Source: a virus (Duplodnaviria; Heunggongvirae; Uroviricota; Caudoviricetes). From it: 4,888 nt of DNA. The notes under the pieces are model-generated. The model made no database searches. It had not been told where the DNA came from and saw nothing but the letters and a program-made list of their open reading frames with translations. Below, one piece after another: positions 1,250 through 4,888 of this stretch. Every line of letters begins with the position of its first letter. Position 1 is the stretch's first letter. The stretch lies in IMG/VR virus record IMGVR_UViG_3300029610_000167, positions 1 to 4,888 of that record; one strand, written 5' to 3'. The translations under genes were made by a program, and so were the position numbers.

Positions 1250-1561
1250 TTATCTTGATAAAGCGTTATTAATATTTTGACAGTAACGGGAGGGAACCTT
1301 AATCGTGTGATTTTCGATTTCAGGTTCAAAAACTACAGAGTCAGCTTTGTAATAAGGGAAGTAAAGGATGTACTTTGGACCGGCAAAACCAGTGATATAT
1401 GTGTAGGCTTCTACTTTTGCCACCTCACCAAACCAAGTGTAACTTGAGTCGTTAGCCGTGATGCAGTCACCTTGAACATATTTTCCTTCAGAATCGGAGG
1501 CAAAGCATGCAGTGATTGTGCTGCACAGTAATAATATTAAAGTTATTTGAATTGCTTTCAT
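1250..1561 (-). CDS. Hypothetical exported protein or lipoprotein, ~103 aa, in an AT-rich moron; function unknown
   Basis: The track ORF 1250-1573 begins with TTG; the first ATG is at 1561-1559 with a weak GGAAAA upstream. The N-terminus MKAIQITLILLLCSTITAC-FASD has a basic n-region and hydrophobic core, with both a lipobox-like I-T-A-C and an A-x-A-type signal peptidase I site. The mature part has two Cys (GDC... and ...RYCQ) and is rich in Tyr. The gene is visibly AT-rich relative to its flanks and antisense to the late operon. Confidence 0.6.
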   Translation of the reverse strand: MKAIQITLILLLCSTITACFASDSEGKYVQGDCITANDSSYTWFGEVAKVEAYTYITGFAGPKYILYFPYYKADSVVFEPEIENHTIKVPSRYCQNINNALSR

Positions 1562-1872: not shown

Positions 1873-2178
1873 ATGCACGAAAAAGAGAGCCTTGCCGGAG
1901 CGTTCTGGCTCGTTTTGCTGATCATCGCAGGTTGGGGCGGTCTGGTCCGCTACCTGATAGATGTGAAGCAGAGTAAAGCAACGTGGAGTTGGATAAATGC
2001 TCTGGCTCAAATAGTGGTATCAGGATTCACCGGTGTTATTGGTGGCCTGATCAGCATCGAAAGTGGATTCAGTATTTACATGATTCTCGCGACAGCGGGG
2101 ATTAGTGGTGCGATGGGTTCGGTTGCACTGACGTACTTCTGGGAACGACTGACAGGGGTGAAAAATGCAAAATCTTAA
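1873..2178 (+). CDS. Putative class I holin (three predicted transmembrane segments), 101 aa; not lambda S-like
   Basis: Immediately upstream of and overlapping the endolysin gene by 14 nt. Three hydrophobic stretches (AFWLVLLIIAGWGGLVRYL; INALAQIVVSGFTGVIGGLISI; SIYMILATAGISGAMGSVALTYFW) and a short charged C-terminus ([11 protein letters not shown]). First ATG of the track ORF is at 1873; the 38 codons upstream of it start with TTG and look like read-through, not coding. Shine-Dalgarno is weak, so the start is uncertain. Confidence 0.7.
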   Translation: MHEKESLAGAFWLVLLIIAGWGGLVRYLIDVKQSKATWSWINALAQIVVSGFTGVIGGLISIESGFSIYMILATAGISGAMGSVALTYFWERLTGVKNAKS

Positions 2179-2641
2179 TCCTCAGCGCAAAGCCTTCCTC
2201 GATATGTTGGCGTGGTCAGAAGGAACGGATAATGGGCGACAACCGACACGTAACCACGGCTACGACGTTATTGTAGGTGGTGAGTTATTCACGGATTACT
2301 CCGATCATCCTCGCAAACTTGTCACGCTAAACCCAAAACTCAAATCAACAGCCGCCGGGCGCTACCAGCTTCTTTCCCGTTGGTGGGATGCCTATCGTAA
2401 GCAGCTTGGCCTGAAAGACTTCTCTCCCAAAAGCCAGGACGCTGTGGCATTGCAGCAGATTAAAGAGCGTGGCGCTTTACCGATGATTGATCGCGGTGAT
2501 ATCCGTCAGGCAATCGACCGTTGCAGCAATATCTGGGCTTCACTGCCGGGGGCTGGTTATGGTCAGTTCGAGCATAAGGCTGACAGTTTGATTTCAAAAT
2601 TCAAAGAAGCAGGCGGAACGGTCAGAGAGATTGAGGTATGA
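2165..2641 (+). CDS. R: Endolysin R, lambda-type lytic transglycosylase, 158 aa
   Basis: The translation is near-identical to lambda R as I recall it ([148 protein letters not shown]). Its stop overlaps the Rz start (ATGA at 2638-2641). Confidence 0.95.
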
Positions 2642-3099
2642 GCAGAGTAACCGAGATTATCTCCGCTCTGATTATCTGCATCATCGTCTGCCTGTCATGG
2701 GCTGTTAATCATTACCGTGATAACGCCATTACCTACAAAGCCCAGCGCGACAAAAATGCCAGAGAACTGAAGCTGGCGAACTCGACAATTACTGATATGC
2801 AGCTTCGCCAGCGTGATGTTGCTGACCTCGATGCAAAATACACGAAGGAGTTAGATGATGCGAAATCTGAAAATGATGCTCTGCGTGATGATGTTGCCGC
2901 TGGTCGTCGTCGGTTGCGCATCAAAGCAGTCTGTCCGTCCGTGCGTGAATCCACCACCGCCTCCGGCGTGGATAATGCAGCCTCCCCCCGACTGGCAGAC
3001 ACCGCTGAACGGAATTATTTCACCCTCAGAGATAGACTGATAATAATGCAGAAACAACTGGAAGGGACTCAGCAGTATATTAAGGAACAGTGCAGATAA
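2638..3099 (+). CDS. Rz: Spanin inner-membrane subunit Rz (i-spanin), 153 aa
   Basis: N-terminal transmembrane segment ([17 protein letters not shown]) followed by a charged coiled-coil-like periplasmic domain; the sequence closely matches lambda Rz from memory. Start is coupled to the R stop. Confidence 0.95.
2858..3040 (+). CDS. Rz1: Spanin outer-membrane lipoprotein subunit Rz1 (o-spanin), embedded in the +1 frame of Rz
   Basis: Entirely inside Rz in a different frame. AGGAG (2846-2850) lies 7 nt before ATG 2858; an in-frame ATG at 2855 is an alternative start and gives the 61-aa track ORF. Lipobox VVVGC, proline-rich [18 protein letters not shown]; matches lambda Rz1 from memory. Confidence 0.9.
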
Positions 3100-3123
3100 A
3101 GTTGCCCATATTGATGGGCAACT
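3100..3123. terminator. Perfect hairpin between convergent Rz and bor; candidate bidirectional terminator
   Basis: AGTTGCCCAT (3100-3109), 4-nt loop ATTG, ATGGGCAACT (3114-3123): a perfect 10-bp inverted repeat starting 1 nt after the Rz stop and ending 7 nt before the bor stop. The flanking U-tracts are only moderate on either strand. Confidence 0.5.
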
Positions 3124-3130
3124 CATGCAA

Positions 3131-3424
3131 TTATTGTGAGCAATATACCCGTGCTTCCAGCGGAGTATAAATGCCAAAAGTGATGAAACCGAGCAATCCA
3201 TTTACGAATGTTTGCTGGGTTTCTGTTTTAACAACATTTTCTGCGCCGCCACAAATTTTGGCTGCATCAACAGTTTTCTCCTGTCCAATTCCCGAAACGA
3301 AGAAGTGATGGGTGATGGTTTCCTTTGGTGTTACTGCTGTCGGTTTGTTTCCAACAGTAAATGTCTGTTGAGCACATCCTGTAATAAGCATTGCCAGAGC
3401 GGCAGAAAACAACATTTTTTTCAT
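3131..3424 (-). CDS. bor: Bor lipoprotein (serum-resistance / Iss-family outer-membrane lipoprotein), 97 aa
   Basis: From the ATG at 3424-3422 the product is MKKMLFSAALAMLITGCAQQTFTVGNKPTAVTPKETITHHFFVSGIGQEKTVDAAKICGGAENVVKTETQQTFVNGLLGFITFGIYTPLEARVYCSQ, near-identical to lambda Bor from memory. Lipobox LITGC; AGGA precedes the start. The track ORF 3131-3472 carries 16 extra N-terminal codons that I do not consider coding. Confidence 0.95.
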   Translation of the reverse strand: MKKMLFSAALAMLITGCAQQTFTVGNKPTAVTPKETITHHFFVSGIGQEKTVDAAKICGGAENVVKTETQQTFVNGLLGFITFGIYTPLEARVYCSQ

Positions 3425-3440
3425 CTTATTATCCTGCATT

Positions 3441-3469
3441 GTTAAAAACGGCAGAATCCTATGTGACAA
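3441..3469 (-). promoter_or_regulatory. Candidate bor promoter (minus strand): -35 TTGTCA, 17-bp spacer, -10 TTTAAC
   Basis: Read on the minus strand: TTGTCA (complement of 3464-3469), 17-nt spacer, TTTAAC (complement of 3441-3446), about 20 nt upstream of the bor ATG. Hexamer match only, so a weak call. Confidence 0.3.
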
Positions 3470-3854
3470 CAATTAAACGATAGTTAAATGAATTGATGAA
3501 AATTAAAACTACACAGGTGGACGCTCAGACTATTGGAGGGAGTTGGGGACACTCAGAATCCTGTGGAATGAAATAAACCGCTCTATCTGTCCTTTACCCT
3601 TTTAGCTGCGCTGTATCGTCGCCGTATTCCCGCATTAACAATGACCGTAGCCCGACGGGGAACTCCTCTGCGCGAGTGTGCGGAAATAATCAAAAACGAT
3701 GCACACCGGGTTTTTACCGCGCTAATTATTCGCGGGTTTGTCCCTCATGCTCGCAAGTTCTGTGTGGGGGCGAAGAAACAGGACATGTATTCTAGTCTGT
3801 GCGACCGTGGTCGTTCAGATTTTCATTCGTTTTGCGGAGTAAACCAGAGCGGTT

Positions 3855-3905
3855 GGCGGGTCCTCCTGGCGATTTGAAACACCGGGGGGCTGCGGACACG
3901 CGGAA
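3855..3905. other. Candidate cos region (cosQ/cosN-like) preceding the terminase genes
   Basis: GGCGGGTCCTCCTGGCGATTTGAAACACCG followed by GGGGGCTGCGGACACGCGGAAAACGG resembles, from memory, the lambda right end (ACGGGTCCTTTCCGGTGATCCGACAGGTTACG) followed by cosN (GGGCGGCGACCT) and CGCGGGTTTTCG. It is divergent, and the exact nick positions cannot be set from sequence. Location ~110 bp upstream of the terminase small subunit gene is as expected. Confidence 0.35.
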
Positions 3906-4016
3906 AACGGCTGGTTTTTTGCATTTTATCGGCATCATCATCTTTTATCTAACCTGTTGATATTTCAGTTGTGAAATTATTCACGATGTCGATTCGCTTA
4001 AATATTGTTCATCATC

Positions 4017-4523
4017 ATGGATAACGAACTGAAAAATCTTCGCCTCAATATTAACCAGCTGGCGGCGCTGACTAATCTGCATCGTCAGACCGTCGCAAGT
4101 AGACTGAGCAATGTTGAGCCTGCCCCCGGAAGTAACTCCCGCCTCAAGCTGTATTCGGTTCTGGATATTCTCAGGGAATTACTGGGCAGGACTACGACGC
4201 CGGAGCTGGTTGCTGTTGACAAAATGACACCGCCGGATCGAAAGGCATGGTTTCAGTCTGAGCGGGAGCGCCTCAAGTTTCAGCAGGAGACCGGAGAGCT
4301 TATCCCGGCCTCAGAAGTCAGCCGGGAGTTTGCCTCAATGGCAAAAGTTGTCGTTCAGGTACTGGAAACGCTACCGGATATTCTCGAGCGTGACTGTGCA
4401 ATGACACCGTCAGCCGTCGTCAGGGTGCAAAAAGTCATAGATGACCTGCGGGATCAGATTGCCATGAAGGTTGAGCTGGCAGAGTCGCCGGAACAGGAGG
4501 ACAGTTTGTCACAAGAGGAGTAA
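4017..4523 (+). CDS. Putative terminase small subunit (Nu1-like DNA-recognition subunit), 168 aa
   Basis: Immediately upstream of the GpA-family large terminase, with its stop 3 nt before that gene's ATG. The N-terminus has a helix-turn-helix-like segment (LNINQLAALTNLHRQTVASRL), and the C-terminus is acidic. The track ORF starts at TTG 4005; the first ATG is 4017. No clear Shine-Dalgarno, so the start is uncertain. No clear sequence identity to lambda Nu1. Confidence 0.65.
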   Translation: MDNELKNLRLNINQLAALTNLHRQTVASRLSNVEPAPGSNSRLKLYSVLDILRELLGRTTTPELVAVDKMTPPDRKAWFQSERERLKFQQETGELIPASEVSREFASMAKVVVQVLETLPDILERDCAMTPSAVVRVQKVIDDLRDQIAMKVELAESPEQEDSLSQEE

Positions 4524-4526
4524 GCC

Positions 4527-4888
4527 ATGCGACAGGCCACGGCGGCGGAAGTCAGAAAGAATACCGCCGGGATCATAAAGGCACCGCGTCGGATGCCTGT
4601 TGCCGAGGCCGTTCATAAGTACATGCGGGTTCCCGTGGGCGTCGGAAACTCCGTCGAATGGGATCCGCAACTCGCCCCCTATGTCGTGGAGCCGATGAAC
4701 TGCCTGGCATCACGTGAGTATGATGCTGTTATTTTTGTTGGTCCGGCCCGAACAGGTAAAACAATTGGGCTGATTGACGGCTGGGTGGTGTACAACGTGG
4801 TGTGTGACCCGTCGGATATGCTTATCGTCCAGATGACGGAAGAAAAAGCGCGTGAACACTCCAAAAAACGTCTGGCCAGAACATTTCG
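4527..4888 (+). CDS. Terminase large subunit, GpA family (N-terminal ATPase region; continues past the window end)
   Basis: Frame 3 is open from ATG 4527 to the window end and is absent from the track because there is no stop. AAGAGGAG (4513-4520) lies 6 nt upstream. The translation contains a Walker A P-loop, VIFVGPARTGKTIGLIDG, in the position where lambda gpA has its NVVKSARVGYSKMLLG segment, and the overall layout resembles the gpA N-terminus. Confidence 0.85.
   Translation, partial: MRQATAAEVRKNTAGIIKAPRRMPVAEAVHKYMRVPVGVGNSVEWDPQLAPYVVEPMNCLASREYDAVIFVGPARTGKTIGLIDGWVVYNVVCDPSDMLIVQMTEEKAREHSKKRLARTF

Follow-up and report, generated by a model that had tools for sequence, protein, structure and literature searches.

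A probable lambda-type cos site with a variant cohesive end beside a DUF1441-type packaging module in an enterobacterial lambdoid prophage

Introduction

In the window (the whole stretch of 4,888 nucleotides that was analysed), only a short interval lies between a bor gene and the genes for terminase. The question that this locus raises is whether the interval ends in the cos site at which the genome is cut for packaging, and whether the departure of this site from the lambda sequence carries a meaning for packaging specificity. Judged by comparison with related sequences, the segment 3858-4017 is probably the cos of a lambdoid prophage whose packaging module pairs a DUF1441 small terminase subunit (TerS) with a gpA-type large subunit (TerL), as in the group of mEp213, LLS, cdtI, Gifsy-2, and yong2. 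On this assignment, the site is an ordinary lambda-type cos with a previously unremarked variant of the cohesive end and a module joint inside cosQ. The analysis thereby gives a gut enterobacterial prophage its likely genome ends and packaging signals.

The prophage and its late region

Gene calls and Pfam matches identify the window as the late region of a lambdoid prophage. Its genes are the following.

Start of the window: end of rusA, the first gene in the late-region order
395-1063: Q
1250-1561, minus strand: ORF with no assigned function, between Q and the holin gene
1873-3099: holin, lysozyme, and Rz/Rz1 genes
3131-3424, minus strand: bor/iss lipoprotein gene (PF06291 Lambda_Bor, E=3.7e-31), the left border of the interval
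4017-4523, plus strand: terS, terminase small subunit of the DUF1441 type (PF07278, E=3e-47; PHROG 141 'terminase small subunit', E=4e-65)
4527-4888, plus strand, running off the window: terL, terminase large subunit of the lambda gpA family (PF05876 GpA_ATPase)

The bor gene is 94% identical to that of phage 21 and 91% identical to that of lambda. A TerS identical to that of the window was found on 12 public contigs, including a 220-kb contig from a bacterial assembly and contigs from human-gut metagenomes. All of these contigs display the order bor, gap, terS, followed by terL (705 aa), a portal gene, and a ClpP-capsid fusion; portal and protease-capsid genes lie downstream in loci L136-L139. 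The same order on 12 contigs, together with the intact genes downstream, indicates an integrated prophage with a head of the Gifsy-2/mEp213 type. The packaging and head genes of this prophage appear to be intact in sequence. The initial annotation had reasoned that an internal cos is expected in an integrated prophage, and the presence of the same locus on the 220-kb bacterial contig agrees with this. A search of complete E. coli RefSeq genomes did not recover the whole bor-cos-terS arrangement; the best match to its right half was 84.7%.

Two features upstream of the interval deserve mention. The minus-strand ORF at 1250-1561 encodes 103 aa with a lipoprotein-like signal (MKAIQITLILLLCSTITAC) and has no match in Pfam or PHROG. 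The toxin genes of Stx phages sit between Q and the holin gene, which is the position of this ORF here. Just downstream of Q, the segment 1100-1179 has a weak hit to isrJ in Rfam that stays below threshold (27 bits, with a gathering score of 37) and coincides with a GC-rich hairpin and a T run. From its position, we think that this segment is a candidate late promoter/terminator region (pR'/tR').

cosQ and the layout of the probable cos site

The left part of the site consists of two elements.

3858-3864, plus strand: cosQ (GGGTCCT), which signals termination of packaging; the same heptamer stands at lambda 48473-48479 and in the annotated cosQ of phage 21
3865-3886, plus strand: spacer of 22 nt between cosQ and the predicted top-strand nick

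The window has a single GGGTCCT, and 22 nt separate it from the predicted top-strand nick. The stretch that the initial annotation had likened to the right end of lambda thus holds an exact copy of the 7-bp lambda cosQ, unique in the window. The combination GGGTCCT-N30-38-CGCGG also has a single occurrence in the window and was never seen in 200 shuffles. The spacer measures 22 nt in LLS and cdtI too and 23 nt in lambda and Gifsy-1. To the right of cosN, a conserved CGCGGAAAACGGCTGGTTTTTT starts at 3899.

The same layout is widespread. A pattern scan of IMG/VR with GGGTCCT-N30-38-CGCGGRAAANGGCT returned 125 matches (105 unique), and the distance from cosQ to CGCGG was 34 nt in 115 of the 125 under a pattern that allowed 30 to 38. 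More than 100 related loci share the multi-element layout over about 160 bp. The flank and the left half of cosN (CACG/GGGCGG) are conserved in these loci, the right half is variable, and the GTTTTT that follows is nearly invariant in 106 unique family sequences; the search pattern had itself set the CGCGG, AAA, and GGCT columns. Conservation in lambda-like phages covers cosQ, the flanks, and positions 1-6 of cosN, with variation allowed at positions 7-12 (PMC4669245). In other words, cosN of the related loci is conserved in the pattern given by Feiss et al. for lambda-like cosN (PMC4669245). The window itself carries the signature of the DUF1441-TerS group, with an exact CGCGGRAAANGGCTRGTTTTT as right flank and 34 nt from cosQ to CGCGG, and its cos core recurs exactly in two loci (L118 and L039) that are 98.8% identical to it over 2638-4888. 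The functional cos probably runs past 3960, where the initial annotation had placed its border, up to the terS start at 4017. Annotators can use the signature cosQ-N34-CGCGGRAAANGGCT to orient genomes of the DUF1441-TerS group.

Two observations concern cosQ and the number of cos sites in other records. In Gifsy-2 (L143, 686-735) and Chris1 (L002, about 3000-3050), a cosQ variant, AGGTACT, replaces GGGTCCT; the literature describes cosQ as having no apparent natural variation. Four single IMG/VR contigs of 11-13 kb (L022, L023, L033, and L065) have two to three cos sites each with different TerS/cosB types, and some of these sites are on opposite strands. Such contigs may have arisen by chimeric assembly of multi-lysogens, or they may contain genuine tandem or satellite elements.

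The predicted cohesive end

Where would the two strands be nicked? The core of cosN is placed as follows.

3887-3898, plus strand: predicted 12-nt 5' cohesive end GGGCTGCGGACA (cosN core), from gapless alignment; the alternative is 14 nt, 3885-3898

A gapless alignment with LLS (GGGCGGCGCGCT), cdtI (GGGCGGGAGCGT), and lambda (GGGCGGCGACCT) gives a 22-nt spacer followed by a 12-nt overhang. The predicted GGGCTGCGGACA is identical to the lambda end at 8 of 12 positions, with mismatches at positions 5, 9, 10, and 12, and this bears out the earlier remark that the cohesive-end core is unlike that of lambda. Its left half matches lambda at five of six positions; the exception is position 5, which is T where the conserved left half has G. 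Records of relatives open or close at the corresponding places. The LLS record annotates its positions 1-12 (GGGCGGCGCGCT) as the 5' cohesive site, an assignment that was inferred from the TerL type and the putative mEp213 cos and not measured (PMC12315714), and the GenBank record of cdtI opens at GGGCGGGAGCGT. The linear record of the Hafnia phage yong2 ends with GGGGCAGCGACA (GACA) and starts with CGCGGGAAACGG (CGCGGG), which corresponds to 3898/3899 of the window.

The bottom-strand nick is the firmer of the two. The distance from cosQ or the cosQ-like sequence to CGCGG is 35 nt in lambda, Gifsy-1, and Cr-LKS3, and a span of 34-35 nt across these and the DUF1441 family places the bottom-strand nick at a constant distance from cosQ. 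Cue and Feiss reportedly found in 1998 that bottom-strand nicking requires cosQ. The position of the top-strand nick is less secure; from sequence, 3886/3887 is favoured, which would give a 12-nt end starting with GGGC.

An alternative keeps the same cos and moves the top-strand nick. The initial annotation had quoted a 14-nt core, GGGGGCTGCGGACA, which is located at 3885-3898; such an end would arise if the top strand were nicked at 3884/3885, after the CG of CACCG, and another length in the range of 11-14 nt belongs to the same alternative. A 14-nt stagger is proposed because conserved CG flanks lie 14 bp apart. High conservation has been reported for the CG dinucleotides next to both nicks (PMC4669245). 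In the window the right flank of cosN is CG (3899-3900), while the left flank reads CG in the 14-nt register only and GG in the 12-nt register. Two conserved CGs are 14 nt apart in the window, Chris1, SC476, yong2, L121, L034, and Gifsy-2, in all of which the distance from cosQ to CGCGG stays at 34. The measured overhang of Cr-LKS3 is 9 nt, with the left nick after CG in CG/GGGC (PMC9303873), which implies that overhang length is not fixed in DUF1441-type phages. However, in the gapless alignment with most members of the family, GGGC falls at overhang positions 1-4, giving 12 nt, and the dyad symmetry, counted by hand, is 8/16 in the 12-nt register against 6/18 in the 14-nt register. Furthermore, the enterobacterial lambda-like phages cited by Feiss all have 12-nt ends (PMC4669245). 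A nick giving 14 nt, or another length in this range, is therefore unlikely for the window, and it is just as doubtful that its sub-branch (the window, Chris1, SC476, and yong2) and Gifsy-2 as a whole cut cos with a 14-nt stagger. Alignment of the site with phages that have close terminases, which the initial annotation had called for, thus upholds a lambda-like cos and favours the 12-nt GGGCTGCGGACA over the quoted GGGGGCTGCGGACA.

If the stagger is 12 nt, the sub-branch and Gifsy-2 can do without CG in the left flank and accept an altered left half, and the catalogue of lambda-like cos sites gains a natural cosN variant with a changed left-half position 5 and a non-CG flank. With either length, a gpA-type terminase would set the bottom-strand nick by its fixed distance from cosQ/I2 (34-35 bp in lambda, Gifsy-1, Cr-LKS3, and this family), and the top-strand nick could drift.

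Two further records bear on the ends of relatives. Gifsy-2 has 14 nt, GGTGGCTTCGGGCT, between its CG flanks. The mEp460_4F5 record (L008, 1-40) opens 5 nt to the left of the expected nick and has 2 nt fewer than cdtI in the GCGT-CGCGG stretch; this discrepancy may be an assembly artefact at physical ends.

A candidate cosB

The sequence to the right of cosN contains the following elements.

3899-3927, plus strand: I2-like segment CGCGGAAAACGGCTGGTTTTTTGCATTTT, an A-tract/T-tract inverted repeat
3928-3942, plus strand: R3-like candidate TerS-binding element ATCGGCATCATCATC, cos bp 42-56
3950-3962, minus strand: IHF consensus site TATCAACAGGTTA, I1-like, the sole perfect WATCAANNNNTTR match in the window
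3979-3993, minus strand: R2-like inverted copy ATCGACATCGTGAAT (minus-strand reading), a 10/15 match to the R3-like element
4005-4019, plus strand: R1-like direct copy TTGTTCATCATCATG, overlapping the terS start codon

The I2-like segment has the same position as the lambda sequence running from CGCGGGTTTTCGC to GAAAATTTTCC and scores as a hairpin plus a T run. The R3-like element is close in position to R3 of lambda (bp 50-65) and of N15 (bp 48-60; PMC9026076). Across the family, the motif at this position, which is CATCATCATC, CGTCATCACCAC, GGCGGCGGCAGC, or GGCCACCATCATC, tracks the N-terminal type of TerS. Such a pairing is what would be expected of a recognition site; simple linkage could also account for it. 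The perfect IHF consensus WATCAANNNNTTR occurs once in the window where 0.26 occurrences are expected by chance, and its TTGAT core lies at about the same offset across the family.

The R2-like copy matches at 9/15 at the same offset in Chris1 and SC476 and is not significant by itself (P of about 0.12). The R1-like copy matches at 9-10/15, at an offset of 103-106 from CGCGG, in the window, yong2, LLS, Chris1, SC476, and mEp460_4F5; in the last of these, a long stretch separates it from the terS start downstream. Within individual sequences, none of the R-like repeats reaches significance (P 0.12-0.6). The ATG of terS (4017) has no Shine-Dalgarno sequence and is surrounded by a conserved TGTTCAYCATCATGGA, which looks like a DNA element (the R1-like repeat) overlapping the start codon. 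Taken together, the R3-like, IHF, and R2/R1-like elements suggest a candidate cosB at 3928-4019. The order of elements in lambda cosB is R3-I1-R2-R1 (PMC9026076), and the candidate mirrors this order.

By analogy with lambda, packaging at this site would proceed as follows. TerS would bind the R3-like, IHF, and R2/R1-like elements of cosB (3928-4019) and position a TerL dimer on cosN. TerL would then nick the top strand at 3886/3887 and the bottom strand at 3898/3899, which would produce 12-nt 5' cohesive ends (GGGCTGCGGACA). Packaging would proceed rightwards through terS until the next cos of the concatemer, where cosQ (3858-3864) would trigger termination.

Terminase and packaging specificity

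Between CGCGG and the terS start there are 118 bp, and the distance is the same in yong2, Chris1, and SC476. In the DUF1441-TerS cos group, terS lies about 117-185 bp to the right of cosN and is followed by a gpA-type terL, and the window, at 118 bp, fits this arrangement. TerS of the window is 87.5% identical to that of Chris1, 72% to yong2, 65% to LLS/mEp213, 49% to Gifsy-2, and 41% to Cr-LKS3. A BLASTP comparison with lambda Nu1 detected no similarity (E=14), and Pfam assigns the protein to DUF1441 and not to Nu1. The window is thus set apart from the packaging-specificity groups of lambda, 21, and N15, which have a Nu1-homologous TerS. A PDB sequence search with TerS returned nothing meaningful, and its single-sequence AlphaFold2 model was unusable (pLDDT 49.9). 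The full 705-aa TerL in locus L136 has PF20454 GpA_nuclease in addition. The initial annotation had called the downstream terminase non-lambda; this holds for TerS, which is of the DUF1441 type, but not for TerL, which belongs to the lambda gpA family (PF05876/PF20454).

Does the different cosN core imply a different packaging specificity, as had been proposed? The comparison speaks against this, as the same cores occur beside different types of TerS. Among the fetched loci, at least three kinds of TerS N-terminus follow the core GGGCGGGAGCGT, and the core GGGCGGCAGCGT is present in Gifsy-1, which has a Nu1-type TerS, and in L088, whose flank is the I2-like CGCGGAAAACGGCT of the family. In experiments of Feiss et al. 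2015, the lambda and N15 terminases used each other's cosN equally well (PMC4669245). Mismatched ends are viable, and specificity resides in the contact of TerS with cosB (PMC4669245).

Two other readings of the segment can be weighed against a working cos. Many enterobacterial lambdoid prophages are defective, and the segment could have descended from a cos in a prophage that is now defective, so that the site is no longer cut. Such a relic is quite improbable here: terS, terL (705 aa), the portal gene, and the protease-capsid fusion are intact downstream, the identical cos core is present in L118, L039, and nine more fetched loci, including copies with an identical TerS, and all but two of the conserved family positions are kept. 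The prophage could also have no cos at all and package by the headful mechanism from a pac site, which would make the similarity to the lambda end fortuitous. No point in favour of this reading was found, and it is hardly credible: TerL belongs to the gpA family, which is used by the cos-packaging phages compared here (PMC12315714), and not to the headful type of P22, Sf6, or T4, and the match extends over multiple elements and about 160 bp in more than 100 loci. A cos of the PICI kind, in which cosQ and cosN are followed by rpp (PMC9026076), was considered and rejected; terS, terL, portal, and capsid genes follow here instead.

Origin of the bor-to-cos interval

The interval was described as compact in the initial annotation, with about 450 bp between bor and cos compared to more than 1 kb with ORFs in lambda. 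This is correct. The bor start codon (3424) lies 462 bp from the predicted top-strand nick (3886/3887), and the gap between bor and cosQ is 433 bp. In lambda, 1750 bp separate bor (46752) from the right end (48502) with two predicted ORFs inside, and the equivalent distance in phage 21 is 1570 bp with four small ORFs inside. Gene calls, Pfam, and ORF conservation identified no conserved gene between bor and the DUF1441 terS (4017-4523). However, compactness is not special to this locus, because the gap between the last late gene and cos in relatives ranges from 15 to 450 bp (about 15-45 bp in Gifsy-2, 67 bp in yong2, 111 bp in LLS, and about 450 bp in mEp460_4F5). The short distance is a matter of mosaicism, that is, of which right-arm segment got joined to the terminase module.

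Two pieces of DNA make up most of the interval.

3425-3744: non-coding DNA upstream of bor, common to phage 21 and lambda
3607-3785: conserved non-coding mosaic module of 179 bp, upstream of cos in many lambdoid prophages

Over its initial 290-320 bp, the first piece is 95% identical to phage 21 (41362-41680) and to many lambda-like phages; it presumably contains the promoter and leader of bor. The homology to phage 21 covers Rz, bor, and 320 bp past bor (2638-3744, 94% identical). The 179-bp module has sharp borders and an identity of 92-94% across more than 40 fetched loci; irrespective of TerS type, it is always placed 32-106 bp ahead of cosQ. It is also found in lambda (46865-46974, 83%). 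Thus, the 433 bp between bor and cosQ would be non-coding mosaic filler, consisting of bor-upstream DNA of the phage 21 type and then this widespread module.

The homologies on the two sides of cosQ lead to different phages. To the left, 3607-3864 matches the far right end of phage 2B8 at 85% identity; this phage has a Nu1-type terminase and a lambda-type cos. To the right, 3856-4888 is 84% identical to the Citrobacter phage Chris1 and to the E. coli SC476 prophage, both of which have DUF1441 terminases. Because right-arm homology stops and packaging-module homology starts at cosQ, the module joint lies inside cosQ. In other words, a right arm of the kind found with Nu1-type phages meets a DUF1441-type packaging module exactly in cosQ.

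Other contents of the interval were also considered. An ORF at 3641-3877 (78 aa) was rejected as a gene: its ATG is present in 9 of 22 homologues, 1-nt indels shift its frame, it lacks codon periodicity, and it has no match in Pfam or PHROG. A structured RNA in 3607-3785 was not supported, with an RNAalifold covariation term of just -1.34 and two compensatory pairs. Rfam (E<=1) returned nothing in 3100-4100, and ARAGORN returned no tRNA. The segment 3607-3785 was treated as non-coding DNA. The hairpin at the end of the module (3759-3785) displays one compensatory change, from T-A to G-C.

Comparison with known cos systems

The cos site of the window shares with lambda the cosQ heptamer, a G-rich cohesive end starting with GGGC, CGCGG directly after the bottom-strand nick, an I2-like segment of A/T tracts, an IHF site flanked by candidate R elements, and the order of terS followed by a gpA-type terL. 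It differs in the distance from cosQ to CGCGG (34 nt, compared to 35 nt in lambda), in its left flank (GG, compared to CG), in its R-like elements, which are unrelated in sequence to the R elements of lambda, and in its TerS (DUF1441, compared to Nu1). The terS gene starts 131 bp from the left end in the window and 191 bp from it in lambda. In Gifsy-1 and N15, which have a Nu1-type TerS and cosB, cosN variation is confined to positions 7-12, whereas the window is also changed at position 5 and in the left flank. These two phages illustrate that natural variation in lambda-like phages affects cosN and spares cosQ and the flanks (PMC4669245).

Among phages with a DUF1441 TerS, the cos of mEp213 and LLS (PQ299149) is called putative in the part of PMC12315714 that cites Vahanian et al. 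2017. These phages share with the window the TerS family, the 22+12 layout from cosQ to CGCGG, CGCGGRAAACGGCTRGTTTTT, a CATCATCATCAT element at the R3 position, and a terS that starts 117-118 bp after CGCGG. The R3-type motif CATCATCAT is common to them and the window. The cohesive end of LLS is GGGCGGCGCGCT, compared to GGCTGCGGACA preceded by G in the window (that is, GGGCTGCGGACA); the left flanks differ (CCACG in LLS, CACCGGG in the window), and the spacer sequences are unrelated.

A more distant case with measured ends is the Cylindrospermopsis phage Cr-LKS3, whose 5' ends were determined experimentally and leave a 9-nt overhang (PMC9303873). It has a DUF1441 TerS, and its record reads CG/GGGCTCGCG/CGCGGAAG about 35 nt after a cosQ-like GGGTCCC. 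It differs from the window in its cyanobacterial host and in the rest of its genome, which is unrelated.

The nearest sub-branch consists of yong2, Chris1, and SC476. They share with the window the layout CACCG-N14-CGCGG, overhangs ending in GACA, and the I2, R3-like, and R1-like elements, and their TerS proteins are 72-88% identical to that of the window. The interior of their overhang is GGGGCAGCGACA or GGGGCGAGGACA, with A in place of the G that follows CACCG in the window, and their lysis and right-arm modules are different ones that lack bor.
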